The notes beneath the pieces were generated by a model. The model was not told the origin of the DNA. It searched no databases and worked only from the letters and a program-made list of their open reading frames with translations. From Escherichia coli (lineage in GTDB: Bacteria; Pseudomonadota; Gammaproteobacteria; Enterobacterales; Enterobacteriaceae): 64,000 nucleotides of DNA. The position numbers were made by a program, and so were the translations under genes. The DNA lies in assembly GCF_013315695.1 (NCBI RefSeq), contig NZ_CP054353.1. One strand, 5' to 3'. Below are positions 1 to 50,062 of the stretch, piece by piece; positions within the stretch are counted from its first letter, which is position 1, and every line of letters begins with the position of its first letter.

Positions 1-783
1 GGCGGCGTGGAAATCGAAAAAGTGGCGGAAGAAACTCCGCACCTGATCCACAAAATTGCGCTTGATCCGCTGACTGGCCCGATGCCGTATCAGGGACGCG
101 AGCTGGCGTTCAAACTGGGTCTGGAAGGTAAACTGGTTCAGCAGTTCACCAAAATCTTCATGGGCCTGGCGACCATTTTCCTGGAGCGCGACCTGGCGCT
201 GATCGAAATCAACCCGCTGGTCATCACCAAACAGGGCGATCTGATTTGCCTCGACGGCAAACTGGGCGCTGATGGCAACGCACTGTTCCGCCAGCCTGAT
301 CTGCGCGAAATGCGTGACCAGTCGCAGGAAGATCCGCGTGAAGCACAGGCTGCACAGTGGGAACTGAACTACGTTGCGCTGGACGGTAACATCGGTTGTA
401 TGGTTAACGGCGCAGGCCTGGCGATGGGCACCATGGACATCGTTAAACTGCACGGCGGCGAACCAGCTAACTTCCTGGACGTTGGCGGCGGCGCAACCAA
501 AGAGCGCGTAACCGAAGCGTTCAAAATCATCCTCTCTGACGACAAAGTGAAAGCCGTTCTGGTTAACATCTTCGGCGGTATCGTTCGTTGCGACCTGATC
601 GCTGACGGTATCATCGGCGCGGTAGCGGAAGTGGGTGTTAACGTACCGGTCGTGGTACGTCTGGAAGGTAACAACGCCGAACTCGGCGCGAAGAAACTGG
701 CTGACAGCGGCCTGAATATTATTGCAGCAAAAGGTCTGACGGATGCAGCTCAGCAGGTTGTTGCCGCAGTGGAGGGGAAATAA
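1..783 (+). CDS. sucC: succinyl-CoA synthetase beta subunit, C-terminal part (5' end outside window)
   Basis: ORF open to window edge; translation matches the CoA-ligase C-terminal region of SucC; stop overlaps the sucD start (TAATG). Confidence 0.95.
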
Positions 784-1652
784 TGTCCATTTTAATTGAT
801 AAAAACACCAAGGTTATCTGCCAGGGCTTTACCGGTAGCCAGGGGACTTTCCACTCAGAACAGGCTATTGCATACGGCACTAAAATGGTTGGCGGCGTAA
901 CCCCAGGTAAAGGCGGCACCACCCACCTCGGCCTGCCGGTGTTCAACACCGTGCGTGAAGCTGTTGCTGCTACTGGCGCTACCGCTTCTGTTATCTACGT
1001 ACCAGCACCGTTCTGCAAAGACTCCATTCTGGAAGCTATTGATGCAGGCATCAAACTGATTATCACCATCACTGAAGGCATCCCGACGCTGGATATGCTG
1101 ACCGTGAAGGTGAAACTGGATGAAGCGGGCGTTCGCATGATCGGCCCGAACTGCCCGGGCGTTATCACTCCGGGTGAATGCAAAATCGGTATCCAGCCTG
1201 GTCACATTCACAAACCGGGTAAAGTGGGTATCGTTTCCCGTTCCGGTACACTGACCTATGAAGCGGTTAAACAGACCACGGATTACGGTTTCGGTCAGTC
1301 GACCTGTGTTGGTATCGGCGGCGACCCGATCCCTGGCTCTAACTTTATCGACATCCTCGAAATGTTCGAAAAAGATCCGCAGACCGAAGCGATCGTGATG
1401 ATCGGTGAGATCGGCGGTAGCGCTGAAGAAGAAGCGGCTGCGTACATCAAAGAGCACGTTACCAAGCCTGTTGTGGGTTACATCGCTGGTGTGACTGCGC
1501 CGAAAGGCAAACGTATGGGCCACGCGGGTGCCATCATTGCCGGTGGGAAAGGGACTGCGGATGAGAAATTTGCTGCTCTGGAAGCCGCAGGCGTGAAAAC
1601 CGTTCGCAGCCTGGCTGATATCGGTGAAGCACTGAAAACTGTTCTGAAATAA
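783..1652 (+). CDS. sucD: succinyl-CoA synthetase alpha subunit
   Basis: 289 aa; CoA-binding N-terminus [28 protein letters not shown] and phospho-His loop region; translationally coupled to sucC. Confidence 0.97.
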
Positions 1653-1752
1653 ATATCTGTAATAAGAAATAGCCCTCGCCGCTTCCCTCTACAGGAATGG
1701 CGAAGGGCTGTCGGTTTCGACATGGTTGGCCATCATATGATGGCCTTTTTTA
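1653..1752 (+). ncRNA. sdhX: 3'UTR-derived sRNA of the sdh-suc transcript (SdhX/RybD-like), ending at the sucD terminator
   Basis: Position immediately downstream of the sucD stop, two consecutive hairpins, the second followed by a T-run; assignment rests on recalled K-12 biology, exact 5' end not determinable from sequence. Confidence 0.5.
1728..1751 (+). terminator. rho-independent terminator of the sdh-suc operon
   Basis: Perfect palindrome ggccatcatatgatggcc followed by tttttt. Confidence 0.75.
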
Positions 1753-1857
1753 TTCGGGCACTAATCTGAAAAGTTTGCCCACTGCTTTTTTTCCCCATCC
1801 TCTGCGCAATAATGCCCGGCGAAATATCTCCTCTCCGTTCTGTAAAAGGATTTATAC

Positions 1858-3051
1858 ATGAAGAAAATTGTTCTGCCGGTTGCTCTGGCCCTGATGGGTA
1901 TAAATGCGGACGTTTATGCGGCCGATGTAAAGATCGATATTTTAAGTGCAACAGTGAAAGATAAACGCATTGAGGGGGCATCGGTGACGCTGCAACGCAA
2001 TGGCGCACAATCTGTTTCTGGCACCACAAATGCCTCGGGCAGCATTAATCTGGGCTCTTCCTTTGCCGATGATCAAGATGCTTTGTTAATCGTCAAAAAA
2101 GAGGGCTATTCTAATCTGGTGGTCAAATGCCCGTGTGCGGGCATGACTTATGCGATTAGTCCGGTAATGACTAGTCTGGATGGCATGCGTGTCGTATTGA
2201 GCTGGGGCGAAAAGCCTTTTGATCTTGATTCGCATTTGATCTTCCCTGGCGGACATATTTATTTTGATAGTAAAGAGGGGACTGATGCCAATCTGGATGT
2301 TGATGATACGGATAGCTATGGACCAGAAACTGTCACTATCAGCAAAAAGCATTTTGGCGAAAGTTACATCTATGCCGTGCAGGACTATAGCAATAAAGGG
2401 TTGCCCAACAGTAATTATCTCTCTGCCAGTAAGGCAAAAGTGTTTGTTTATGTAGGGGGCTCCCTGGTGCGTAGTTATAGTGTCCCTGCTGGAAAACGAG
2501 GGAACATCTGGACCGTGTTTAAACTCAATCCAAACGGCGAGTTTGAAGATATCAACTCTGTTACCACCGCCAATTTTAACGACACCACATTAGGCGTCAG
2601 GGATTTAGCCACTGTGATAATGCCTGCGACGGGTTCTTCAACTCCGGCTTCACCTGCGATGCAAAACAGTGGATATACTCAACTGGCAAGAAAATATAAT
2701 CGTGAAGGCGAAGCTGTTTACAAAACCGGTCAACTTGAGCAAGCCATTCAACTCTTCCAACAGGCAACAGAATTAGACGGCAATTACGGTCAGGCATTTA
2801 GTAACCTGGGTCTGGCTTATCAGAAAAATGGCAACATCGCGGAAGCGATTTGGGCAAATCGTAAAGCGATCTCGTTAGCCAGTGGAGCAAATGCGGCGAC
2901 AACGCGCGCTAACTCCTATTATAACATTGCCAAAATTTATGAAACTGCAGGACAGAACGCTGATGCATTGCAGCATTATCAACTCGCTTATGCGGAAAAA
3001 AATAAGCCCTCTTATGAAGAGGCCATCGCACGGGTAAAAGCGAAAATGTAG
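1858..3051 (+). CDS. exported protein of unknown function with C-terminal TPR repeats (middle region resembles a YfaP/DUF2135-like domain)
   Basis: 397 aa; N-terminal signal peptide MKKIVLPVALALMGINADVYAA; AAGGA RBS upstream; C-terminal TPR-like repeats; absent from the K-12 sucD-cydA interval as I recall it. Confidence 0.7.
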   Translation: MKKIVLPVALALMGINADVYAADVKIDILSATVKDKRIEGASVTLQRNGAQSVSGTTNASGSINLGSSFADDQDALLIVKKEGYSNLVVKCPCAGMTYAISPVMTSLDGMRVVLSWGEKPFDLDSHLIFPGGHIYFDSKEGTDANLDVDDTDSYGPETVTISKKHFGESYIYAVQDYSNKGLPNSNYLSASKAKVFVYVGGSLVRSYSVPAGKRGNIWTVFKLNPNGEFEDINSVTTANFNDTTLGVRDLATVIMPATGSSTPASPAMQNSGYTQLARKYNREGEAVYKTGQLEQAIQLFQQATELDGNYGQAFSNLGLAYQKNGNIAEAIWANRKAISLASGANAATTRANSYYNIAKIYETAGQNADALQHYQLAYAEKNKPSYEEAIARVKAKM

Positions 3052-3428
3052 CGGTTAGCAAACAGGAGGCTATGTGGTGTTAGCCTCCTTACCCCCAGGC
3101 CAGTGGGAATATAGTAATCATCGTTTTTAACATTCAACGTCCAGATTCTGCTTGAGCGTAAAAACAAGTCTTTAGATATTTTATAAATGATGAAGGGCTG
3201 GAAAGTGGTTGATGTCACCGACTCACGATCGTTATCGCCAGCAAAGCTTTTTTGCCATTGCACCAGACGCACCTTCAACCATTTTGGCGACGAATCAACT
3301 GCTACCGCCACCAGGCTTGTTTGCCATTTTCCCGTACCTAATTCGTCGCTTGCCGCACTGTTGGCTGTAATCAATGGCCCAATGCCCAACCAGATACTTC
3401 TATATCCGATTGGGTTTTGTTAATTGCG

Positions 3429-4025
3429 TTACCCCTTAAACGTTAACCTCGGTCGAAATCTGACCGCTGGCTGAATTAATCCGGCTTCTTGTTGGGCTTC
3501 GATAACCGGACCAATATCTTTATAAGCAGCTGGCGCTTCTTCAATACGCCGTTCTTCGCGCAATGTGACGCATTGCCACGGCAACGTTGACTCTGCAGTC
3601 GCGCGTGAGCGCATGGCCTGCCGACGCTGGCTGCGTCCTGCTCCGTGACTGCAAGACCACAGCCACTCCGGGTTGCCGCAACCAACCGCAAGCCAGGAAT
3701 AATCACCCATGGAACCGGGGATTAACGCCAGATCGCCCGCGCGTGCCGGTGTTGTGGCCACCACAGCGCCAACGGGGACGCCATTGCCGGGATGAAAATC
3801 TGGCGTCGCGCACGTCTGGCGCACATAACCTGGGTGGTCTGGTAGCTTCACTTCTGCAAAATCAAGCAGTTGTGTTACTGCTTTTTCTTCCAGCGGCAGT
3901 TCGTCCGGCAGCAGTACGCGGGCACTGGCACCTGATGGACGAGATAATGAAACAATATTGTTGGCGCGGGAAAGTTGGATCCCTTTGCGCAGAAAGGCTT
4001 TATCAAGCCTTGAAAGATGATGCAT
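3429..4025 (-). CDS. RtcB-family (RNA 3'-phosphate ligase) C-terminal domain protein; probably a truncated remnant
   Basis: 198 aa containing the RtcB C-terminal hallmarks PGSMG, SHGAGR and EAPAAYKDI...RP...KG; the N-terminal metal-binding half of the family is missing. Confidence 0.55.
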   Translation of the reverse strand: MHHLSRLDKAFLRKGIQLSRANNIVSLSRPSGASARVLLPDELPLEEKAVTQLLDFAEVKLPDHPGYVRQTCATPDFHPGNGVPVGAVVATTPARAGDLALIPGSMGDYSWLAVGCGNPEWLWSCSHGAGRSQRRQAMRSRATAESTLPWQCVTLREERRIEEAPAAYKDIGPVIEAQQEAGLIQPAVRFRPRLTFKG

Positions 4026-4276
4026 AACGCTGTCCTGAAATATAGACGTTAAACAACCCCCTGTATTGCGAGGGTAATTTTGTCTTTCCGGTCAGCAGCC
4101 AGCAAAAGGGAAAGAAAACGCGCGTAGTGTATGTGGCGATAGCAAGTTTTACAAGTGGTAAATCTGGCTTATTGTTAAAGAGGAATTATCTTTTGTGAAG
4201 TCTTTTAAGGCCATGACTCATTCAATTTAACCGGACATAGATAATATATAACATAGGGTATATAAATTTATCATTG

Positions 4277-4405
4277 TATACTTGTCATAATTCAAGTTGC
4301 ATGTGCTGCATCGATGTTCGCTCACCCAGGTCACTTACTTATGTAAGTTTCTGGAAATTCATTATTTGTTCCCTTCCTGCAACTTGACTTATTTAGAGTA
4401 TATTC
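4277..4405. repeat. ERIC/IRU intergenic repeat, degenerate copy
   Basis: Contains ttcaagttgcatgtgctgc and cgctcacccaggtcacttacttatgtaag; about 80% identical to the copy at 49934-50062, which matches the ERIC1R/ERIC2 primer sequences. Confidence 0.8.
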
Positions 4406-4614
4406 ATGTATATGAATAATATTCTTGCAATAATAGCTTTAAAGTATTGCATGCGGATAACTGAGGTGAAATTCCTGTTTTAGGATTATTGTCACTTTAT
4501 TTTCCTGGTTAGACATATAGCTGACTGGTTTGTTTATTTGAATTATGATATTCATTAGTGCTACTGTTTTTTATAAAATAATTTTTGAATTGTTATTTTT
4601 TCACGGACGGCATT

Positions 4615-5520
4615 ATGCGAGGAAAAATACCTAAAACGGAACTGCTGGTGACTTTTGAGGTCGTCGCACGTCATGAAAGTTATACCAGAGCGGCAGAGGA
4701 GTTAGCGTTAACCCAAAGTGCAGTATTCAGACAAGTAAGTGCGCTGGAGGAATTTTTACATACTCCGTTATTTTCACACTCTAAAAAACGCATTTTTCTT
4801 AATGATGCAGGGAAGTATTACCTGGGGATAGTAAAAGAAACATTAAATAAGCTGGAACGCGATACCAATACCATTATGACCTGGCAGCCTACGGTTCAGG
4901 TTATTGAACTTGCCGTTAATCCTACTTTTAGTACCCACTGGTTAATCCCAAATTTACATGAATTCACAAAGTTACATCCCGATATTATTGTTAATATTCA
5001 TTCTTTAGCTAATAACGGCGACTTTCTTAATCGGGAGTACGATGCTGTCATTATGCGCGAAAATTTTTGCGCGCCCTGGGCGGAAGTAGAGTATCTCTTT
5101 GAAGAGGAGATTTTGCCGGTATGCAGCGGCAGTTTGCTTGCAATGTCCGATCAAAAACTGTCAGTGGCAGAACTGCTTACTGAGTTACCACTTCTGCATC
5201 AAAGCACCCGTATTACTGGCTGGGAAGAGTGGTTTGCTTTATCTGGCGTTAGCAGTCCGCTGGTCAATAACGGACCACGTTTCGATTTGCTTTCAATGCT
5301 GATTGCCGCCGTGCGCTCTAATCTCGGCGTGGCGCTGTTACCACGGTTCGCTATTCAACATGATTTGGATAGTGGCGATATGGTGATTCCCTGTGATGTG
5401 CCTATTCGTACCGGTAATCGTTTTATTATGACGTGGCAGGAAGAGAAGTCTGACTCACCGCACTTGCAGCAATTTCGTGAATGGTTGCTGGCGAAATCGG
5501 TCGTACCGCAGGAGATGTAA
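4615..5520 (+). CDS. LysR-family transcriptional regulator
   Basis: N-terminal HTH (ESYTRAAEELALTQSAVFRQVSALE) plus substrate-binding domain; ATG at 4615 preferred over the TTG-extended ORF at 4585. Confidence 0.85.
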   Translation: MRGKIPKTELLVTFEVVARHESYTRAAEELALTQSAVFRQVSALEEFLHTPLFSHSKKRIFLNDAGKYYLGIVKETLNKLERDTNTIMTWQPTVQVIELAVNPTFSTHWLIPNLHEFTKLHPDIIVNIHSLANNGDFLNREYDAVIMRENFCAPWAEVEYLFEEEILPVCSGSLLAMSDQKLSVAELLTELPLLHQSTRITGWEEWFALSGVSSPLVNNGPRFDLLSMLIAAVRSNLGVALLPRFAIQHDLDSGDMVIPCDVPIRTGNRFIMTWQEEKSDSPHLQQFREWLLAKSVVPQEM

Positions 5521-5523
5521 AAC

Positions 5524-5550
5524 CTGCGCCTGGCGGGATGCCAGGCGCAG
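5524..5550. terminator. bidirectional hairpin between the convergent LysR and adenosyltransferase genes
   Basis: 10-bp perfect stem ctgcgcctgg / ccaggcgcag with 7-nt loop. Confidence 0.6.
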
Positions 5551-5553
5551 TTA

Positions 5554-6156
5554 TTACCAGTCGATACCCGGCTGGGCCTGAATGCCGTTATCAAAAGCAT
5601 GTTTGACGGGGCGGATTTCGCTTACCGTATCCGCCATTTTTAATATCTGACTGTGGCAACCGCGTCCGGTGACAATGACACTTTGTTGTGCCGGGCGGTT
5701 TTGCAGAGAAGCGATCACTTCTTCGGTGTCCAGATAATGGTAAGCCAGCATATAGGTCAGCTCATCAAGCACCACTAAGTCGTAACGCTTGTCAGCCAGC
5801 ATCCGTTTGCTTTCCGACCAGACCTCTTTCGCCGCGTCGATATCCGCTTGCCGGTTCTGTGTCTCCCAGGTAAAACCGGTTCCCATAATATGAAACTCAA
5901 CCCCCAGCGGCTGGAGAAGGTTGTATTCGCCGTTGTCCCATTGCCCCTTGATGTACTGCGCAACCCCCACCGTTTTGCCATGACCCACCGCGCGCGTCAC
6001 AGTACCAAACGCGGCAGTGGATTTCCCTTTGCCGTTGCCGGTGAAAACAATCAAGATCCCTTTTTTCTCTATCGCCGCCGCGACGCGCGTATCGACCTGT
6101 TCCTTCAATTTCTGCTGGCGCTGCACATGCCGTTCAGTTGAAATTCGCGCTTCCAT
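5554..6156 (-). CDS. ATP:cob(I)alamin adenosyltransferase (CobA/BtuR family), second copy
   Basis: 200 aa; P-loop VFTGNGKGKSTAAFG; near-colinear with E. coli BtuR as recalled. Confidence 0.85.
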   Translation of the reverse strand: MEARISTERHVQRQQKLKEQVDTRVAAAIEKKGILIVFTGNGKGKSTAAFGTVTRAVGHGKTVGVAQYIKGQWDNGEYNLLQPLGVEFHIMGTGFTWETQNRQADIDAAKEVWSESKRMLADKRYDLVVLDELTYMLAYHYLDTEEVIASLQNRPAQQSVIVTGRGCHSQILKMADTVSEIRPVKHAFDNGIQAQPGIDW

Positions 6157-6165
6157 TCATTTTCC

Positions 6166-7818
6166 TTAATGTCCCGCAGGGCAACTGGCGCAGCGGTGTT
6201 TCTGCTCAAACTGACTAAAGAAATTATTGCCTTTATCATCTACCAGGATGAATGCGGGTAAATTTTCCACTTCCATCATCCACACCGCTTCCATACCCAG
6301 CTCCGGGTATTCCAGGCAACGCAGACTTTTGACATATTCTTGCGCCAGTAACGCAGCTGCACCGCCAATACTTCCCAGATTGAAGCCGCCATGTTTGTGA
6401 CAGGCATCGGTGACCTGCTGGCTGCGGTTACCTTTCGATAACATCACCAGACTGCCGCCAGCCGCCTGGAAGGTATCGACATAACCGTCCATTCGACCGC
6501 CCGTGGTTGGACCCAGTGAACCGCAGGCCATGTTCTCCGGTGTTTTCGCCGGGCCAGCGTAATAGACAATATGATGCTTCAGGTAATCCGGCATCGGTTC
6601 GCCGCTATCCAGCCGCGCTTTTATTTTGGCGTGGGCGATATCGCGCGCCACTACGATGGGACCACTTAACGACACGCGGGTGCCTACCGGTAATCTGGCG
6701 AGATCCTGCATCACGTCACGCAACGGACGATTTAGATCCAGCTGTACATGTTGCGCGTGATTTTCTTCCCGCAGTGAGGCTGGAATATATTGCCCCGGAT
6801 TGTGTTCGAGTTTTTCCAGCCAGATACCGTGCTTGTTAATTTTTGCTTTGATATTGCGATCCGCAGAACAGGAGAGCGTCATAGCTATCGGGCAAGAGCC
6901 ACCGTGACGCGGCAGACGAATGACGCGAATATCATGAGCGAAATATTTACCCCCAAATTGCGCACCAATACCAAATTGCTGACTGGCCTCGAGCAATACT
7001 TTTTCCAGCTCAATATCACGGAATGCTTGTCCTTGCTCGTTTCCGCTGGTGGGCAAATTGTCGTAATATTTCGTTGAGGCCAGCTTGGCAACTTTTAAGG
7101 TTTGATCGGCTGAAAGCCCTCCGACGACAAAGGCGATGTGGTAAGGCGGGCAGGCAGCGGTGCCCAGCGATTTCATTTTTTCGATTAAAAATGCGGTCAG
7201 TTTTTCTGGTTGCAATAGGGATTGGGTTTCCTGATAAAGCGCGGCTTTATTGGCAGAGCCGCCCCCTTTATTAATACAGAGAAAATGGTACTCATCACCA
7301 GCGACGGCGCTGATATCAATCTGCGCCGGGAGATTGGTTTGCGTATTGACTTCGGTAAACATATCCAGTGGCGCATTTTGTGAAAAGCGCAGATTATTTT
7401 CCTGAAAAGTGGTGTAAATGCCTTTGCTTAAGGCTTCAGCGTCGTTACCTCCGGTCCATATCTGTTGCCCTTTACTGGCAACAATAGTTGCGGTGCCGGT
7501 ATCCTGACAGTTGGGTAATACCCCTTTTGCTGAGACTTCAGCATTACGTAATAACTGCAACGCAACGTATTTATCATTACTACTGGCGTGCGGATCGTTA
7601 AGAATGCTGGCGACCTGTTGCAAATGAGCGGAACGTAAGAAAAAAGAGGCTTCATAAAATGCCTGCCGGGCAAGCAGCGTTAATGCTTCAGGAGCGATTT
7701 TTATCACTTCTTCGCCGTCTAATTCCGTTACTGTAATATGTTGATCGCTAATTAATGTATATTCTGTACCGTCTTTATTTTGTAGAAACGGTTCTTGCCA
7801 GATAAATGGTTTGGACAT
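6166..7818 (-). CDS. fumD: class I (Fe-S) fumarate hydratase family; probable mesaconase/fumarase FumD
   Basis: 550 aa, FumA/FumB-like length and N-terminus ([11 protein letters not shown]...); lies in the methylaspartate operon. Confidence 0.8.
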
Positions 7819-7925
7819 ATTTCACTTTTCACCTTAAACGTTAGTTTTACTTAATTGCCGTCTAACTTCATGATCCGGCTTATAAAAATGCGTAGTCATT
7901 GGCTTCTGATTGCTTAAGATCCCCC

Positions 7926-9206
7926 TCAGGGCAGAGCAACGTTCGATTCATTGGGTTTTAATGCTTTACCCCGACAGCCCTCGCCGAAATGTTCGCCTTC
8001 CCACCGACTCACCATCGCAGCGCCCATTGCGTTGCTCATGACGTTTGTCGCGGAACGCCCCATATCAAGGAACGGATCAACGCCCATCAGCAAGATCAGC
8101 CCCGCTTCCGGAATATTGAACTGGTTGAGCGTGGCGGCGATAACCACCATTGAGGCGCGTGGTACGCCAGCCATTCCTTTCGAGGTCAACATCAGGATCA
8201 ACAGCATGGTGATTTGCTCACCGATGGATAAATGGATATTGCAGGCCTGGGCGATGAAAACTGTGGCGAAGGAGCAGTAGGCCATTGATCCAACGAGATT
8301 AAATGAGTAGCCAATGGGTAAGACAAAGCTGGCAATTTTGGGGGAAACGCCAAATTGCTCCAGTTTTTCAAGCGTTCCCGGAAAAGCCGCTTCAGAACTG
8401 GATGTGGTAAATGCCAGCAGGGCGGGTTCCGAAAGGGCACGGGTCAGGCGTCTGATGCAGGGGCCGACATAAACGATGGCCAGACCGATAAGCAGCACCC
8501 AAAGTAACAACATGGTGAAATAAAATTCACCCATAAAGATCCCGGCGCTCACCATAACTGCCAGTCCTCGTTCAGCAATCAATGCTGAAATAGCGGCGAA
8601 TACGGTCAGGGGAGCGAAGAGCATGACGTAGCCAGTGAGCTTTAACATGGCATGTGCCAGCGAATCTAAGGCGTGAACGATGGCGCTGCCTTTCTCACCA
8701 ATCGCCGTCAGGCTACAGCCGAGGAAAATTGAGAACACCACGATTTGCAAAATTTCATTGTGCGCCATGGCATCGACAATGCTGGTGGGGAAAGCATGCG
8801 AAATAAATACTTTTAGTGTAAAGGGTTCTGACGCGACCACTCCGGTGGTTTCGGCACCGTGTGCAACAAAATTAATTCCTGTGCCTGGCATGAAGAAATT
8901 TACCGTTATCAAGCCTAAGGCAATTGACAGCAATGAGGCGCAAATAAATAAAAAGAGTGTTTTAGAAAAAATACGACCAAGGGCTTTGGCATCTCCCATT
9001 TTAGCTATACCTACCACCAGGGTAGAGACCACTAACGGAGCGATAATCATTTTTATCAGTCGTAAGAAAATCGTCGTGAATATCGATATTTCTTGCGCAT
9101 AGAGTTTTGCGGTTTCCGGTGAAGCAGTGTTATTGAGCACTACGCCGATAATCATTCCAAGTACCAGCGCCAAAAGAATCATCGTGGTTAAACTTATTTT
9201 CTTCAT
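7926..9206 (-). CDS. DctA-like dicarboxylate/amino acid:cation symporter (DAACS family)
   Basis: Polytopic membrane protein of DctA-like length; start moved to the ATG at 9206, which is preceded by GGAGGA. Confidence 0.8.
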   Translation of the reverse strand: MKKISLTTMILLALVLGMIIGVVLNNTASPETAKLYAQEISIFTTIFLRLIKMIIAPLVVSTLVVGIAKMGDAKALGRIFSKTLFLFICASLLSIALGLITVNFFMPGTGINFVAHGAETTGVVASEPFTLKVFISHAFPTSIVDAMAHNEILQIVVFSIFLGCSLTAIGEKGSAIVHALDSLAHAMLKLTGYVMLFAPLTVFAAISALIAERGLAVMVSAGIFMGEFYFTMLLLWVLLIGLAIVYVGPCIRRLTRALSEPALLAFTTSSSEAAFPGTLEKLEQFGVSPKIASFVLPIGYSFNLVGSMAYCSFATVFIAQACNIHLSIGEQITMLLILMLTSKGMAGVPRASMVVIAATLNQFNIPEAGLILLMGVDPFLDMGRSATNVMSNAMGAAMVSRWEGEHFGEGCRGKALKPNESNVALP

Positions 9207-9251
9207 TTTTTCCTCCATCAGGTGCACGGCGATAAATCAGAATCAGGAGAA

Positions 9252-9283
9252 GTAGATGCCTGAATAGAGATTCAGGCATCTAC
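9252..9283 (-). other. intercistronic stem-loop (14-bp perfect stem, 4-nt loop) inside the operon
   Basis: gtagatgcctgaat agag attcaggcatctac; no U-run follows on the transcribed strand. Confidence 0.5.
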
Positions 9284-9366
9284 CTGCTATTACAACCTTA
9301 CAAATAGCTGAAGTGTTGAACTGCAATAAGTGACGGGATGTCAGTTGGCTAAAAGTATTCGGATTT

Positions 9367-9684
9367 TTACAAATCGAAACTCATATTTAATAAAGGTGCA
9401 TGTTGCTGTGCACCATAGACATCATTGTCACCTACATTCCCGGAGATAATATCTCGTGGCATGACGATTTTTACTGCGTTAGAAGGATCAAACCAGACAA
9501 TACGGTGAATAAAGTCAGGTTCAACATGATATAAGCGCGCAATCAGTTCTGGGGTTAATTGCCCTGATGATTTAACTCGCTCATAGTTTTCTTTCGTTTT
9601 AAATAAAATATCTAAAACCAGTTCGTAAGGTCCGGCATTTTTCGAACGAATGACTTGCGCCAGTGAGACAATTGACTGTTTCAT
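9367..9684 (-). CDS. small protein of unknown function (DUF4387/AtuB-like by recollection)
   Basis: 105 aa ORF whose start overlaps the stop of the upstream gene by 4 nt (translational coupling). Confidence 0.6.
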   Translation of the reverse strand: MKQSIVSLAQVIRSKNAGPYELVLDILFKTKENYERVKSSGQLTPELIARLYHVEPDFIHRIVWFDPSNAVKIVMPRDIISGNVGDNDVYGAQQHAPLLNMSFDL

Positions 9685-11051
9685 GCCTGAACTCCTTCTG
9701 GCGTCACCTGTTCAATATGGAAATCAAAACGCAGAGCGTCGTTGGCTTCAATCAGGTGATATATGGAAAATTCGTATACCGGCCCGCCCTGGATATCAGA
9801 AGGGGAGAACGGGAACGCCAGATTGCCTGCGGTAGCGATGCGGTTTTCATAGCCGTAGTGCAGCATGGTAGAGCGCACCAGCGAGCAAACGCTATTGGCA
9901 ATTTCCTGGGTCGGTGCAACTACATCAAGGACAATCCCCAGCTCATGCCCGGCAGTTTGCATCGGTTCATGGTCGCCCATCACCCCGTTTTTGCCGTACA
10001 GGTGGAAATTGATGCGAATGCTGTCATCGTCGAGCGACAGGTTACGCCAAACGCTGGTTTTGACTTCATCGATGATTTTATCGATCCCGGCGATCATGAT
10101 CGGGTCGCGCGTTCCTGCGATGGTCAGACAGCGGAAGCCCACCCGTCGCGCACCTTCCAGTTTCAGGGCATACGGCGTTTCTTCATGCTTAGAACCGCTG
10201 ACGTACACTTCGCCGTCATTGACCGCTTTAAATGTGCAGCCTTTCAGGTTCAACACGCCGCCAGGTCCAGGCAGGAAGTAGGGATCGGATTTCTCATACA
10301 GTGTGTGTGCAGCCGCTGACGTTTCGGTAAATTTACGCTTCGGATTAAATGTCTTCAGCGTAAAGCCGTTGTCATCAATGATGCCCATCGCACAGTCAGA
10401 GCCTGAGCCGGGCGTTGCGGCGATTGCCGCGCATTCAAGGATTTTCCCACAATGCAGCGCCAGACCTTCATCAAAGCCTTGCATGATCGGGAGCGCAGCA
10501 AAGCAGGCCGGGTCGTAAGCGCGCCCGCCCAGCACCACTTGCGCGCCTTCTTTCAGCGCCCGCTGGAAGGGTTCGATGCCCATTTGCGCGACGATATACG
10601 TACTTTCGTCAATCGCGTCGTGGGTTAACGGCGGGACAAAATCCAGCGCCGTGATTTTGCCGTTATCCAGCGCCTGGTGGACGATGGCTTTGTCAACGTC
10701 TGCCGGGATCAACGCCATCGAGAACGAGAGGTGCTCTTCCTGGGCAATCTCATGAATTATTTCTCGGCACCACTCCAGGTGTGGTGCGGCACCAGAACCG
10801 CCAGCTGTTCCGATCACCACCGGTATATTATTTTGCACGCCTGCGGTGATCATATAGCGCAGATCGCGCTTGACCCCTGCGCGATCGGTAAACGGTTTGC
10901 CTGCCCCGAGGTAGTGGGGGCCTGGATCGGAAGAGCCTGCATCAACGGCGATCAGATCGGGCGATTCTGCCATCGCTTTGCGGAAGCTCTCTTCCGGGAA
11001 TCCATACCCGAGGATTGCCGTTGGCGATAAGACTTTAAAAGAACGAGCCAT
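9681..11051 (-). CDS. DUF1446 (AtuA-like) family protein, function unknown
   Basis: 456 aa; family assignment is from memory of the N-terminal region and is unverified. Confidence 0.6.
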   Translation of the reverse strand: MARSFKVLSPTAILGYGFPEESFRKAMAESPDLIAVDAGSSDPGPHYLGAGKPFTDRAGVKRDLRYMITAGVQNNIPVVIGTAGGSGAAPHLEWCREIIHEIAQEEHLSFSMALIPADVDKAIVHQALDNGKITALDFVPPLTHDAIDESTYIVAQMGIEPFQRALKEGAQVVLGGRAYDPACFAALPIMQGFDEGLALHCGKILECAAIAATPGSGSDCAMGIIDDNGFTLKTFNPKRKFTETSAAAHTLYEKSDPYFLPGPGGVLNLKGCTFKAVNDGEVYVSGSKHEETPYALKLEGARRVGFRCLTIAGTRDPIMIAGIDKIIDEVKTSVWRNLSLDDDSIRINFHLYGKNGVMGDHEPMQTAGHELGIVLDVVAPTQEIANSVCSLVRSTMLHYGYENRIATAGNLAFPFSPSDIQGGPVYEFSIYHLIEANDALRFDFHIEQVTPEGVQA

Positions 11052-11054
11052 TTG

Positions 11055-12296
11055 TTAATCCTTAGCCTGCAACAGCGCGATAGTACGATTCATTTCGTTG
11101 AAGACGATATCGAGGCCTTCGTCAAAGCCCATCCCTGGCTTTACCAGCATACGCATAGGGCGAGCGGCAAGGGCGACGTGGACACAGGTGCGGGCACTGA
11201 CATCAGTTTCATTGCAGGTGCCGCCCTGGTACGCTTCCATGCTGTGGCTGTTGCAGTAAAGAACCGCATCGACGATGTTGTGAATACTGCCCAGATCCGG
11301 GGTTTTGATTTGCACCATGTGACAACTGGCGGCATCAGTGAAATCAACAATATCCTGGTAGGTGTTACACCATTCATCGGCCACAATTTTCACGCCGGAA
11401 CCGAGGCGCGTCAGCTCTTTGGTAATCGCGGTCAGCAGGCGAATTTGATCGGGCTTGTTACCGGCATCGACCGGCCCTTCAATGTAGAGCGGCAGGCCTT
11501 GCGCTTCTTTTTCCAGGCTGGCGATGTATTGCGCACAGCGAAGCGGATCCATATCGAAGATCAGGCCGATAGTGCCGTATACATCGATGTGCAGGGTTGG
11601 GTGGTAGCGTGCGCTGGTGCGCTTGCTCAGAATACGATCCGACAGCCAGCGGACATATTCGCGCAGTTTTTCACCTTTAAAGCCCAGTTTCTCTTCGACG
11701 TTATTAATCAGTGCATGGGGCAGCACGTCGATGCCCTTAAGGATCATCTTATCGACGGCGATATATCGATCGTCCCCGCTCTGACCAAATAATGGAATGG
11801 ATTCCGCCACGCGTGGCAACTGCCATTCATCACAGACCACTTCAGTTTTCAGACGGCCGGTTGCCAGCGCGGTAGCATCAAGCAGCGCCTGTGATAATCC
11901 GTAGCGCACGGCGGTATGCAGCAAGTTGCCGTCAATACGCAATTTGTCGAAGAAACGGGCATTCGGCAGGAAAGCATCCACATCGCGGCCTATCAGTAAT
12001 GGCTTGATATGGTCGTTGAGGAACGGAATAAAGTGCTCAGCGAGGAACAGTGGATCGCGACCACCTGCCCCGGAATACTGTACGGCAGCACAGTCACCTA
12101 CGGCGACCGCGCCGTTTTCCAGAATCAACTGTACCGATACGCACTCCCCGGCCTGACGAACGGCGTTAAACCCCTGTGTTACCGGCTCCCCGGTATAAAA
12201 AAAGCCGTCATGACCCGCTCCGTTTTTTATCGCCTGCTGGTCATCGAAATAGAATGAGGAGTAGCCAGCAGTGAACAGAGCCTGTTTTATTTTCAT
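11055..12296 (-). CDS. mal: methylaspartate ammonia-lyase (beta-methylaspartase)
   Basis: 413 aa; N-terminus MKIKQALFTAGYSSFYFDDQQAIKNGAGHDGF matches clostridial MAL. Confidence 0.9.
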   Translation of the reverse strand: MKIKQALFTAGYSSFYFDDQQAIKNGAGHDGFFYTGEPVTQGFNAVRQAGECVSVQLILENGAVAVGDCAAVQYSGAGGRDPLFLAEHFIPFLNDHIKPLLIGRDVDAFLPNARFFDKLRIDGNLLHTAVRYGLSQALLDATALATGRLKTEVVCDEWQLPRVAESIPLFGQSGDDRYIAVDKMILKGIDVLPHALINNVEEKLGFKGEKLREYVRWLSDRILSKRTSARYHPTLHIDVYGTIGLIFDMDPLRCAQYIASLEKEAQGLPLYIEGPVDAGNKPDQIRLLTAITKELTRLGSGVKIVADEWCNTYQDIVDFTDAASCHMVQIKTPDLGSIHNIVDAVLYCNSHSMEAYQGGTCNETDVSARTCVHVALAARPMRMLVKPGMGFDEGLDIVFNEMNRTIALLQAKD

Positions 12297-13741
12297 TATG
12301 GTCTTCCTATTAATTTACTGTGGGATACAGCATTGATGTCATCTACAACCATCTGGAATGTCGGTTGGCGTCCTTCAAAGCGTGCGCGTTCCGCAACGTA
12401 ATCGTGGTGGAGGTCGAGAATATCTTTTGGCAATGGAACGGCTCCGGCTTCCAGTACGCGTATCGCGCCGGTGTTGTCACGGACCGGAAGAATTTTGCCC
12501 GCGTTGCAGGCGGCTGGCGCAAACGGCACATCCAGTACGCCCGCTTCAAATGCCAGCACCGTACCGCGCGCAATATCACCATTACCCAGTTCGAACACTT
12601 TATTCAGTACCGCGTGAACCTCGCTCTTAATCAGTTCAATTTCCAGTTCAACCGCAGGGCACGGCGGGAATTTCTGCTCGTTGACCATGTTGAGCATCTG
12701 GCGGGAGGCTTTCAGCCCCTGAATGTTGGCAGCGGCAGTCGGGATGCCCCAGGCTTCGTGCGGACTTTTGGTGATGACTTTGGTGGCACCAGACATCCCC
12801 GCGACGGCTGCGCCCCAGGAGATAATAGCGAACGCTTTCGATTCGTCTTCCGGAAAGCCGCCCATCCACTGGTGAAACACGGTACTTAATTCATAGTCGG
12901 TATAGCCATAGCTCTGAAAATATTCGTGTGCAAGTTCACGCAGAGACTGGATCGCCGCAACATCCTGCGTCAGGCTGCCGACCTGTCCATAACCAACGGT
13001 GATAGATTTCACACCCTGTTCCAGCGCCAGTAATCCTTCGATTATCGCGATAGAGTGCGAGATAAACGGCGGGATCAGGGTACCCGTTAGTGGGCCAAAC
13101 GGTTCGCGGTTGATGCGGATCCCGTGTTCTTCATACATCCCCATTAAACGGTCGCAGTACTGCCAGTCGCGGATCGATTTTTCCAGCGTTACGCGCTTGG
13201 CATACGGAATGTTGTAGGAAATGCCGCCGCCTTCATAACTGGTAAAGCCGCTGGCCATCGAGATTTCAGCCAGCAGACGCGCATCTGGCGTGCCGTGGCG
13301 GATCTGTAGCGGTTTTTGCAAAGTTTCGGTGAGGCGACGGCAAGCTGCGACGCCGTGGTTAACGACCGGTAAACCGTTCAGTTTAGAGGTTCCGGCTTCG
13401 ATGGATTTTTTAATCCCTACAGCCGCTTCTTCGTACCGATTCAGACGGGTATATGCGTCGATGGTGCTCGGCAGCAGATCGCATTCTTCTTGTAGTGTTT
13501 TCAGTAGTTCGATGTGTTCGTCCATCAGCGCCACGCCTGCGCGCGGTTGGCTAAGAGTTTTACCTTCCTTGTCTGCTTTCAGCAGGGCAAGAGAGAAGCG
13601 TTTATGCTCAGGAATGGTTTGTTGGTATTTAACGCCATCTTCAAAGTTTTCAACATCCTTGCCGGTTTCCCAGGTTTTCAGTACCTGTTGCCGCTCGGTC
13701 ATGAATTCGTCATGGGTTAATTTCTTATTTCGAAGTTCCAT
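12296..13741 (-). CDS. glmE: glutamate mutase epsilon (E) subunit
   Basis: 481 aa; N-terminus MELRNKKLTHDEFMTERQQVLKTW resembles clostridial GlmE/MutE. Confidence 0.88.
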   Translation of the reverse strand: MELRNKKLTHDEFMTERQQVLKTWETGKDVENFEDGVKYQQTIPEHKRFSLALLKADKEGKTLSQPRAGVALMDEHIELLKTLQEECDLLPSTIDAYTRLNRYEEAAVGIKKSIEAGTSKLNGLPVVNHGVAACRRLTETLQKPLQIRHGTPDARLLAEISMASGFTSYEGGGISYNIPYAKRVTLEKSIRDWQYCDRLMGMYEEHGIRINREPFGPLTGTLIPPFISHSIAIIEGLLALEQGVKSITVGYGQVGSLTQDVAAIQSLRELAHEYFQSYGYTDYELSTVFHQWMGGFPEDESKAFAIISWGAAVAGMSGATKVITKSPHEAWGIPTAAANIQGLKASRQMLNMVNEQKFPPCPAVELEIELIKSEVHAVLNKVFELGNGDIARGTVLAFEAGVLDVPFAPAACNAGKILPVRDNTGAIRVLEAGAVPLPKDILDLHHDYVAERARFEGRQPTFQMVVDDINAVSHSKLIGRP

Positions 13742-13759
13742 TGATTGCAGCCTTAATTG

Positions 13760-15148
13760 TTATAGGGTTAAGCATTGAATACTGGTGCGCGCGGCGGCCA
13801 GCGGATCGACTCTGGCGACGTTTGCCAGCAGTGGTAATAGCCCCCGGGAATCGCGGTAATATTCAAATTCGGTCGGTAAGAGAATGCGTTTACCGTCGTC
13901 GTTTAACTCGCGGTATTTCAACCAGTGATGCATATCGAACTGACTGGCACGCGAGAGCCATCCGCCGGATCCGACGACTTTACGCACGGTTGTCAGGTCA
14001 CGTCCCATCTGTAAATCGACATTGCCGACGCAGGTGCAGACCTCTTTTTTGGTGCCCGCATGTCTTTCGGTGGCATAACCCACACACAGTCCGGCCAGGA
14101 CTGTATCGAAATATTTTTCTTCTGCATTCGCGGGTAAGTAGTCGGGATGAGCGACTAGATGACGGAGGTAATGATAAAAAGCGTCCAGCTGTGCGGGTTG
14201 CTGAGCAAAATTCACATTGACTAACTCTTTCGCACTTTCACCAACCACCATTGCCGAGACGCGCATTCCCAGATCGCCTTCCACCGTCCGTTTCACGAAG
14301 GGTTCCGGTACGCCGTGTAAAACGGTGTCGGGCGAGAGCGTGTTGGCACAGGCGGAATAGACATCGGTGGTTGCGCCACCCATGTCGATCAGTATGAACT
14401 CTTTCCAGCTGTGATCGACATTACTGATTGCCTTAACCAGTTCAAAGACTGTCCACGGTGTCGGCATTGGTTCTTCGCCTGTTTTATCAACAACGACATC
14501 CAGCCCTTTCCCTTTAACGATGCGTTTAAGGAATATGTCGCAGATAGCCTGGCGTGCAGCTAAAGGGTTCGGATGGTCAAGATCGGGCAGAACGTTGTCG
14601 ACGATGGTCAGGTCTTTATGCCCTAGGATCTCCTGCACCTCGTCCTGAATATCCCGGTTTCCGGCATAAATAATGGCGCAGTCGAGTTTGGATTCTGCCA
14701 GCACACGGGCGTTATTCAGGCCGTAGCTTTCTTCTCCGCCGTCGGTGCCGCCGGTGAACAAGAGAATATCGGGCTGCGTTTCTTCCAGTGCCTGGATATC
14801 ACGGCGGTTCAGCTTGTAGGAGTAATATTGCGCAATTTTAGCCCCCGCAGAGTGAGCGGTTACTTTCGCGGTTTCCAGGGTGATAGAAGGCACCAATCCC
14901 ATTGCGGCAACCGCCAGCCCACCTTTGGCAGAGGAGGAATACTTCAATGCAACCTCACCGTTGTTAAACAGGGGGAGGGTATTATCTACGTTTAACACCA
15001 GGTTCAGGCTGGAGAAAAACCCCTTCGCCAGATGATGGGTGGTGGTTGGGGTCAGTACGTGGTTAACCAACGTTAACGCGTCCCCCTCCCGGGCGAAGAG
15101 GGCTGCTTTGGTCCACGTCGATCCAATATCGACAGAGACGATTTGCAT
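13760..15148 (-). CDS. glmL: glutamate mutase L component (MutL/GlmL)
   Basis: 462 aa, the size of clostridial GlmL; sits between the S and E subunit genes. Confidence 0.8.
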   Translation of the reverse strand: MQIVSVDIGSTWTKAALFAREGDALTLVNHVLTPTTTHHLAKGFFSSLNLVLNVDNTLPLFNNGEVALKYSSSAKGGLAVAAMGLVPSITLETAKVTAHSAGAKIAQYYSYKLNRRDIQALEETQPDILLFTGGTDGGEESYGLNNARVLAESKLDCAIIYAGNRDIQDEVQEILGHKDLTIVDNVLPDLDHPNPLAARQAICDIFLKRIVKGKGLDVVVDKTGEEPMPTPWTVFELVKAISNVDHSWKEFILIDMGGATTDVYSACANTLSPDTVLHGVPEPFVKRTVEGDLGMRVSAMVVGESAKELVNVNFAQQPAQLDAFYHYLRHLVAHPDYLPANAEEKYFDTVLAGLCVGYATERHAGTKKEVCTCVGNVDLQMGRDLTTVRKVVGSGGWLSRASQFDMHHWLKYRELNDDGKRILLPTEFEYYRDSRGLLPLLANVARVDPLAAARTSIQCLTL

Positions 15149-15597
15149 CAGATTGCCTCTTCAAGAATACGAGTATCAACGTCATGACGTTGGTTGATAT
15201 CGTGTGCCATCAGCTGACAAACATCTTCTAAGTCATGACTTGGGGCAAAGACGCGATCAAATCCCATCTCTTTGAATTTGGTTTCCACGTCAGCGAAGTC
15301 ATGTTTTCCGACCACCAGGTTACCGCCCACATAGAGCAGGATGTCCCCCAGTCCACGCTCGATGCAGCGTTCGCGCATGCCCAGACAGTCGATATCGCCA
15401 TGCCCATAGATAGAGGAGACGACAATCGCGTCAGCGCCAGTTTCAATGGCCGCATCAATATATTCGTCCTGGCTGACCATTACGCCCAGATTAATGACTC
15501 TGAAGCCATGGTTGCTAAAAACGCGGTCCAGAACTTTATTGCCTACTGCATGGCAGTCCGCGCCAATAACGCCAATCACAAGTGTTGCTTTCTTCAT
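15148..15597 (-). CDS. glmS: glutamate mutase sigma (S) subunit, cobalamin-binding
   Basis: B12-binding domain; start taken at MKKATLV (15597), preceded by AAGGA, rather than the longer ORF from 15660. Confidence 0.85.
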
Positions 15598-16143
15598 GGG
15601 TAATCCTTTGTAAGACAGAGAGTAAAATAAGTTACACACGTCGTATTTATGGCCGTTCATAACGGCACAGGTTTAATATCACAGGAGTGTCTTTATCTGA
15701 CCGTAATGTTGCAATTGATCTATTTTCAAAATGTCTTTCGGGAAATGATTGTTTAAAGTATGTTGTTAAATTCTCATGTTAATTCAGTGTGTTATGTCAA
15801 CTAATGTCATGAATGTTAAATTTTTAAAATTAACTTGATTTGGTGTATTGAGGTATTTGTGATCTACTTCTAATTTGCATTTTAGTGATATGGGTTTAGC
15901 CATGAGTAAATGCATTTCATAAAATTTAAGTCGAATTTCACTGCAATTCATCTCTGCTTAATGTAAAAATAATGTTGAAAATAACAAATGGTTAATGATT
16001 CATGCGAATTATGACCTTAGTTAGCTCTTTTGATTTTTCGTAAAAAAGAGAGGTACATGAAGGTGCTACCAGTATGAGTAACGTTAATCAAAGGTTTTAT
16101 TACGTCTGGCAATAACGCAGGCCATTTTCGCGACTGGGTGGAT

Positions 16144-49933: not shown

Positions 49934-50062
49934 TATACTCGTCATACTTCAAGTTGCATGTGCTGCGTCTGCGTTCGCTCACCCCAGTCACTTACTTATG
50001 TAAGCTCCTGGGGATTCACTCGCTTGTCGCCTTCCTGCAACTCGAATTATTTAGAGTATATC
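49934..50062. repeat. ERIC/IRU intergenic repeat
   Basis: Contains atgtaagctcctggggattcac (ERIC1R) and cgctcaccccagtcacttactt (reverse complement of ERIC2). Confidence 0.9.

Follow-up and report, generated by a model that had tools for sequence, protein, structure and literature searches.

A probable pseudogene allele of an accessory rtcB gene in the sucD-cydA interval of Escherichia coli

The RtcB-family reading frame and its neighbours

The window, by which we mean the whole 64-kb stretch of E. coli DNA analysed here (64,000 nucleotides), shows in its first part the order sucD, a TPR gene, a hypothetical gene (ORF125), a short RtcB-family ORF, a LysR-family gene, cobO and a fumarase gene, followed by genes of the methylaspartate pathway. 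The RtcB-family ORF occupies positions 3429-4025 on the minus strand and comprises 198 codons plus the stop, as established from the ORF list, which confirms its ATG start, and from Pfam, DNA alignment and tblastn. Isolate AF3 (NZ_OZ547117.1), to which the window is 100% identical over the tested stretch, served as annotation reference.

The 198-residue product matches the Pfam RtcB profile PF01139 with an E-value of 1.8e-33 and 116.8 bits (cutoff 27), which places it in this family, in agreement with the preliminary description made from the sequence alone. The match consists of two stretches, the best of which covers positions 316-426 of the 426 positions of the profile. Four motifs are recognizable, PDFHPGNG (residues 75-82), IPGSMG (102-107), SHGAGR (126-131), and EAPAAYK (163-169), and the last three are the C-terminal hallmarks that this description had claimed. 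The histidine of the SHGAGR motif, His127 (codon at 3645-3647), aligns in sequence with His404 of Pyrococcus horikoshii RtcB, the nucleophile that carries GMP. In these features, i.e. the PF01139 match, the PDxHxG and PGSMG motifs, the HGAGR histidine, and the EAPxAYK tail, the ORF resembles canonical RtcB (P. horikoshii, PDB 1UC2/4DWQ; E. coli rtcBA). Unlike canonical RtcB, it retains only 198 of about 410-480 residues and has no adjacent rtcA or rtcR; a complete colinear catalytic domain (about 400+ residues) is missing, only the equivalents of residues 1-93 and 361-465 of a longer protein being present.

An intact 465-residue gene at the same position

This longer protein is encoded at the same locus in E. 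coli strain 7/2, where a 1,398-bp gene annotated as "RtcB family protein" lies between mngB and the same LysR-cobO island. Aligned with P. horikoshii RtcB, its 465-residue translation (for example WP_001522602.1) matches from end to end (residues 40-464 to 30-480), and it covers positions 7-426 of PF01139 with 320 bits. The ORF of the window corresponds to codons 1-93 and 361-465 of this stand-alone RtcB gene, fused in frame. The preliminary description had proposed an alignment to full-length RtcB, and here both ends of the ORF align while the middle is absent. With a shared locus, start, and upstream region, and a DNA identity of 94-99% in the retained parts, the intact gene is the direct parent form of the window allele, which differs from it by the lack of codons 94-360, including all of the Mn ligands.

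The 465-residue protein does not fall into the RtcB subfamilies that we considered. It scores 203.6 bits against NCBIfam NF007153 (PRK09588; cutoff 407) and 167.9 bits against TIGR03073 (release_rtcB; cutoff 271.8), and the 198-residue ORF reaches 85.5 and 67.5 bits, respectively. Membership in PRK09588 or in the PrfH-associated RtcB2 subfamily, a relationship also raised in the earlier description, was therefore rejected for both forms, and the score of the intact parent puts it outside the release_rtcB subfamily. No prfH adjoins the deletion allele, whose neighbours are the TPR gene, LysR, and cobO. Neither the rtcA cyclase gene nor rtcR, encoding the sigma54 activator, was found in the annotated 16-kb neighbourhood or beside the intact alleles. 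Since it stays below the subfamily cutoffs and has no rtcA, rtcR or prfH alongside, we regard the intact gene as a third RtcB paralogue, present in some E. coli strains and standing alone. The RtcB2-PrfH operon, of which E. coli K-12/BW25113 has a truncated and ATCC 25922 an intact version (PMC9223846), is a precedent for the strain-specific truncation of an accessory RtcB paralogue in this species. It is nevertheless a distant sequence relative of the window gene, which differs from it in its subcutoff TIGR03073 score, the lack of an adjacent prfH, and its location in the sucD-cydA interval. Several paralogues with differing activities, RtcB1/2/3, are also described for Myxococcus xanthus, according to the part of the account of Maughan & Shuman (2015) that is cited in PMC10630183. 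They illustrate that one bacterium can have multiple RtcB paralogues, and the intact 465-residue gene belongs in such a setting; the Myxococcus proteins themselves are full-length active enzymes.

Homologues outside Escherichia occur in Pseudomonas, Burkholderia, Ralstonia, Variovorax, and other genera, with 60-67% identity and a length of 462-470 residues; none of them has the short 198-residue architecture. No RNA-repair neighbour of the family gene is conserved at the E. coli, Pseudomonas or Burkholderia loci, and our literature search found no characterization of the intact E. coli protein or of the 462-470-residue family. The intact alleles are unusually diverse for E. coli, with 93-98% pairwise nucleotide identity (loci L002, L005-L007, L021-L026, L030). 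Similarity among them varies by segment, suggesting frequent recombination at the locus.

The deletion junction

The pairwise DNA alignment of the window with strain 7/2 shows identical sequence upstream of the gene and at the start codon, a single gap of 801 bp, and colinear sequence on to the stop codon. The gap corresponds to residues 94-360, i.e. 267 central residues, and leaves the frame intact. The retained N-terminal segment, codons 1-93, lies at 3747-4025 (minus strand), with the native ATG closely preceded by a Shine-Dalgarno-like AGGA; it contains the PDFHPGNG motif and is colinear with the intact alleles, differing at 1-2 of 270 nucleotides from those of JNE23-011 and 7/2. The C-terminal part that remains comprises codons 94-198, equivalent to 361-465 of the intact protein; it lies at 3429-3746 on the same strand and carries IPGSMG, SHGAGR, and EAPAAYK. 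It differs from each sampled intact allele at 12 or more of 312 nucleotides. Among the 5,426 complete E. coli genomes, there is no immediate intact parent for this 3' segment, the best match being 95.8% identical. An intact gene in the same TPR block is present in Escherichia sp. E3659, 4-5% diverged from the 3' segment of the window.

The junction itself consists of a single copy of CAACACCGG at 3746-3754 (minus strand), as located by alignment with the intact gene; the longer junction pattern spans 3739-3764. Intact alleles have two repeat copies, CAACGCCGG and CAACACCGG, spaced 801 bp apart, the left one in the context ...GCC T CAACGCCGG AT... and the right one in ...GGT G CAACACCGG CACG..., and the window reads GTGGTGGCC-A-CAACACCGG-CACG. 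Comparison of these sequences places the breakpoint inside a 9-bp direct repeat, CAACRCCGG. The two copies match at 8 of 9 positions in the E. coli intact alleles; Escherichia sp. E3659 has an intact allele with CAACGCCGG twice, i.e. a perfect repeat. Two variants, TCAACGCCGG and ACAACACCGG, occur at the junctions of the deletion alleles, and that of Escherichia sp. E4694, TCAACGCCGG|CAC, is the exact product predicted from the E3659 intact allele. A junction of this kind is the signature of slippage or illegitimate recombination between short direct repeats, the presumed mechanism.

The central part of the gene has not moved elsewhere. With the intact protein as query against the whole window, tblastn returned only two significant HSPs (residues 1-102 and 359-465), both within the ORF, and residues from about 103 to 358 had no significant match anywhere in the 64 kb. 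The full intact gene, searched at megablast sensitivity, hits one place per genome, with 43% coverage in a genome that carries the deletion allele. From these two observations, we conclude that the segment is gone rather than relocated.

Loss of the metal ligands and predicted fold

In P. horikoshii RtcB, the two Mn sites are formed by Asp95/Cys98/His203 and Cys98/His234/His329 (PMC10630183). By alignment, the equivalent ligands of the intact 465-residue protein are D104, C107, H224, H255, and H342, and the equivalent of His404 is H394; together with N223, all of these residues are invariant in an 84-member family alignment. Since the five metal ligands all lie within the deleted residues 94-360, none of them is left in the remnant, which also lacks the GTP pocket of canonical RtcB. 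Accordingly, the motifs GTDISCG, GSGNHF, MIHSGSR, and DVPHN are absent from the 198-residue ORF, and what is kept is PDFHPG (75-80), IPGSMG, SHGAGR with His127, and the C-terminal tail. The preliminary description had placed the missing ligands in a lost N-terminal half; the loss of the ligands stands, but native residues 1-93 are kept and it is the centre of the protein that is missing.

Using the same 83 homologues as input alignment, AlphaFold2 gave a mean pLDDT of 92.4 and a pTM of 0.92 for the intact protein, compared to 65.4 and 0.49 for the remnant, in which the PDFHPG segment (residues 74-93) and the His loop (122-133) fall below a pLDDT of 50. When superposed on solved RtcB structures, the model of the remnant fits poorly, with TM-scores of 0.33-0.43 and rmsd values of 10-12 Å. 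These models suggest that the 198-residue product would have no defined fold. With the metal ligands gone, we expect the product to lack GTP- and Mn-dependent RNA 3'-P/5'-OH ligase activity, and we infer that it is incapable of GTP-dependent guanylylation or RNA ligation and unlikely to fold stably.

Distribution of the alleles and the sucD-cydA interval

We used the intact gene as query against 5,426 complete E. coli genomes. A full-length gene, for which the preliminary description had proposed to look at this locus, is found in about 290 of them, flanked, as in 7/2, by mngB or sucD on one side and by the same LysR-cobO island on the other. Five complete genomes have the deletion allele, which is also present in Escherichia sp. 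E4694 and in hundreds of draft assemblies; strains AF3, MSB1_4I, and MS 21-1 are examples of carriers. Only the last 39 bp of the gene are retained in about 395 complete genomes, and the remaining genomes, which are the majority, show no trace of it. A distant blastn search of the same collection maps window positions 3428-4600 onto 1,974 bases in about 280 genomes. The junction-specific pattern matches all of the local deletion loci, with 0 matches in the genome and metagenome contig collections.

The 39-bp 3' stub adjoins sucD in ST69, in the order sucD, stub, hypothetical gene, LysR (L020, 4001-4039). It marks an independent and larger deletion of the same rtcB gene. The stand-alone rtcB paralogue is dispensable and has been repeatedly lost.

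The sucD-cydA interval (window 1-16000; loci L002-L007 and L020) is a hotspot at which the gene content of E. coli strains varies. They carry here different combinations of mngRAB, a TPR lipoprotein-like gene, stand-alone rtcB, a hut island, and a LysR island, the latter composed of LysR, cobO, fumarase, symporter, DUF4387, AtuA, and methylaspartate ammonia-lyase genes. The order is sucD, mngRAB, rtcB, and the LysR island in 7/2; sucD, rtcB, and hutU in MRY15-117; mngB, rtcB, and a glmE pseudogene in A25; sucD, the TPR gene, and cydA in FDAARGOS_1295; and sucD followed by the LysR island in O157 (SRCC 1675). The block formed by ORF125 and the TPR gene follows the deletion allele in every examined locus. 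What lies upstream of the deletion allele varies: in E. coli it is the LysR island, in E4694 the hut island. Some deletion-allele genomes also have broken neighbouring genes (loci L013, L016 at 3506-4411, and L017 at 5975-8404), with the LysR regulator split into two ORFs and the TPR gene interrupted by IS-like transposase fragments.

Origin and meaning of the short allele

All of these observations are best explained if the ORF at 3429-4025 is a deletion allele of the accessory 465-residue RtcB gene, catalytically dead as judged by its sequence and pseudogene-like, rather than a new short RtcB; we hold this explanation to be very likely correct. It rests on an intact orthologue at the same locus with colinear flanks around one discrete gap, and on the removal of residues essential to the family, the five ligands, accompanied by the drop in predicted confidence. 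Of the two options left open by the preliminary description, that of a decayed remnant is borne out by the intact gene in about 290 genomes and the one clean, in-frame 801-bp difference. The other option, an unusual short RtcB-like protein, fares badly, as the 198-residue form is widespread only as one deletion allele within Escherichia, and no family of bona fide short proteins came to light among the uniformly long homologues of other genera.

The starting point is an intact accessory rtcB gene in the hypervariable sucD-cydA interval of Escherichia chromosomes. Codons 94-360 were excised precisely between the two CAACRCCGG copies, presumably by replication slippage or illegitimate recombination, as the repeat-flanked junction suggests. 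The excision took away every Mn2+-coordinating residue and most of the protein core, and left the native promoter region, the ribosome-binding site, the start, 93 + 105 codons, and the stop in a single frame. The remnant has presumably persisted and spread by descent and by homologous recombination with its flanking DNA.

The alternative that survives best is that the short ORF encodes a genuine "mini-RtcB", in which the N-terminal β-strands and the C-terminal His-loop module have been selected for a role other than ligation. Such a protein could bind or sense nucleotides, act in regulation, or interfere with or modulate the other RtcB enzymes of the cell. The ORF is indeed open in all five of the deletion-allele haplotypes examined and in hundreds of assemblies, from two Escherichia lineages about 3% apart in sucCD (sucC and sucD are about 97.1-97.4% identical between the window and E4694), and the deletion is in frame, with the native start, upstream region, and expression signals kept. 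Among the five DNA haplotypes, 36 sites vary, 25 of the differences being synonymous and 11 nonsynonymous. The most divergent pair, the window and E4694, differs by 20 synonymous and 6 nonsynonymous codons (omega about 0.1), and the adjacent non-genic DNA is 8.5% diverged. This 20:6 pattern would imply purifying selection on the short ORF if all of the divergence post-dated a single deletion.

The history of the alleles argues against such a reading of the 20:6 pattern, because the comparison of the window with E4694 is confounded by mosaic recombination with intact alleles or by a possible independent origin. In its 5' segment, the window differs at 1 of 270 nucleotides from the intact allele of JNE23-011, compared to 9 nucleotides from the E4694 deletion allele, and in one deletion haplotype, L010, the 3' segment is like that of strain 7/2. 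The 3' segments of the window, of E4694, and of the intact E3659 allele are 4.5-4.8% apart in each pairing, and the E4694 deletion allele is 96.4% identical to intact E. coli alleles, compared to 95.6% to the window deletion allele. By sequence, the deletion alleles are not monophyletic on their flanks, so the synonymous-rich divergence was most likely inherited from intact alleles, through gene conversion or recurrent deletion.

Of the changes private to the E. coli deletion clade, six are nonsynonymous (P40S, P65S, S91T, C116Y, E144A, and W193R) and 3-4 synonymous, compared to 22 nonsynonymous and 46 synonymous among intact alleles, and W193R alters a position where Trp is the consensus of the 84-member family. 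These changes are compatible with neutrality (p = 0.29) and also with the constraint on the intact gene (p = 0.15), and they lean towards relaxed constraint. Taken with the loss of all metal ligands, the low-confidence AlphaFold2 model, and the lack of short homologues outside Escherichia, these points make a selected short protein improbable. We consider it just as improbable that a single deletion preceded the split between E. coli and the cryptic Escherichia lineage and that the frame was then kept open by purifying selection. In a milder variant, the perfect 9-bp repeat could make the exact deletion recurrent, and the locus could thus be a hotspot resembling an on/off switch for an accessory ligase.

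A considerably less probable reading is that the ORF is a stand-alone C-terminal fragment, remaining after the gene had lost its 5' half. The preliminary description saw it this way, and the same view is implicit in the PGAP annotation of the identical AF3 genome, where only 3429-3764 (minus strand) is called, as a 111-residue "RtcB family protein" with a GTG start at the junction (NZ_OZ547117.1; L001, 7730-8065). The family models do score mainly the C-terminal 105 residues, the best-scoring parts of the ORF being residues 95-198 with Pfam and 92-197 with NCBIfam. Nevertheless, the DNA encoding residues 1-93 has 98.6% identity with codons 1-93 of the intact gene, and both the ATG and the sequence upstream of it are the same. 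In a phmmer search against solved structures, residues 40-107 fall on the N-terminus of the Thermus and Pyrococcus RtcB proteins, including the PDxHxGxGxPxG motif, and residues 94-198 on the RtcB C-terminus; the N-terminal part of the ORF covers RtcB residues from about 30 to 104 (30-93 in P. horikoshii). No RtcB-like sequence lies upstream of 4025, and the search of 4026-4600 for a decayed N-terminus came back empty because the internal deletion keeps both termini. The colinear alignment with the intact gene refutes the fragment reading and replaces it with an internal 801-bp deletion.

It is more improbable still, to the point of being negligible, that the central part lies elsewhere, as in a split or permuted gene, that it was removed by design, in an excision that is intein-like or programmed, or that a repeat collapsed during assembly: the flanking direct repeat and weak matches to NCBIfam models of intein-containing RtcB could point this way, but the matches involve only the shared RtcB C-terminus (43-49 bits against cutoffs of 1050-1150), the full gene as megablast query hits one place per genome, with 43% coverage in a deletion-allele genome, and the same junction recurs in five independent complete genomes and 12 independently assembled loci. 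Intein or programmed excision was also rejected because the missing part is the conserved catalytic core and not an insert.

The deletion allele of the accessory gene is probably best treated as a pseudogene, and it has little importance beyond annotation. Public databases already list its 198-residue product under the name "RNA-splicing ligase RtcB [Escherichia coli]", in several single-residue variants, one indexed in 378 blocks of the collection and others in 85 and 27; the sequence is thus already catalogued and the feature is of an ordinary kind. The remnant is annotated inconsistently and misleadingly, as the 111-residue CDS in PGAP and as the full ORF in other records. The 198-residue, 111-residue, and scattered partial-protein entries all represent one catalytically dead allele, to be flagged as a pseudogene and not as a ligase. 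For specialists, two points may be of use: the presence in some E. coli of the additional RtcB paralogue with its diverse mosaic alleles, and the behaviour of sucD-cydA as a recombination and deletion hotspot in which the gene may be whole, lack its middle, survive as a 39-bp stub, or be missing altogether.

Flanking sequences

The rtcB allele is separated from the divergent LysR gene by an AT-rich intergenic region at 4026-4614, which is 98% identical to the spacer upstream of intact alleles and therefore native to the locus. Its AT-richness had been noticed correctly from the sequence: over 4026-4584 the GC content is 33.8%, compared to 55.6% for the ORF. A scan of 3300-4650 for promoters and terminators gave 5 promoter-like sites, with 2.4 ± 1.6 expected, an uninformative difference. 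The LysR-family gene (4585-5520, plus strand) has a TTG start at 4585 in the mechanical ORF list and an ATG start at 4615 in PGAP. It is not a conserved partner of rtcB, as the intact alleles have other upstream neighbours.

On the downstream side, ORF125, a "hypothetical protein" of 125 residues at 3012-3389 (minus strand), lies in the spacer after the rtcB allele, where it overlaps the TPR gene at the 3' end of the latter. Pfam gave no match to ORF125 even at E ≤ 10, and a presumed resemblance to an outer-membrane family was dropped for that reason. A comparison of the window with E4694 gives a divergence of 8.5% for this region, in which 7 codon changes are synonymous and 21 nonsynonymous; the nonsynonymous-rich divergence indicates that ORF125 evolves as non-coding DNA does, and the gene call is probably spurious.

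The spacer upstream of rtcB also contains, as the preliminary description had recognized, a degenerate ERIC (enterobacterial repetitive intergenic consensus) element at about 4277-4411. An ERIC2 primer site occurs within it at 4319-4340 with two mismatches (0 expected by chance), and 5,425 of the 5,426 E. coli genomes contain dispersed copies of about 84% identity to the element, with a median of 6 places per genome. A canonical ERIC core lies at 49976-50019 of the window, where, unlike in the degenerate copy, the ERIC2 and ERIC1R primer sequences match perfectly and are adjacent.
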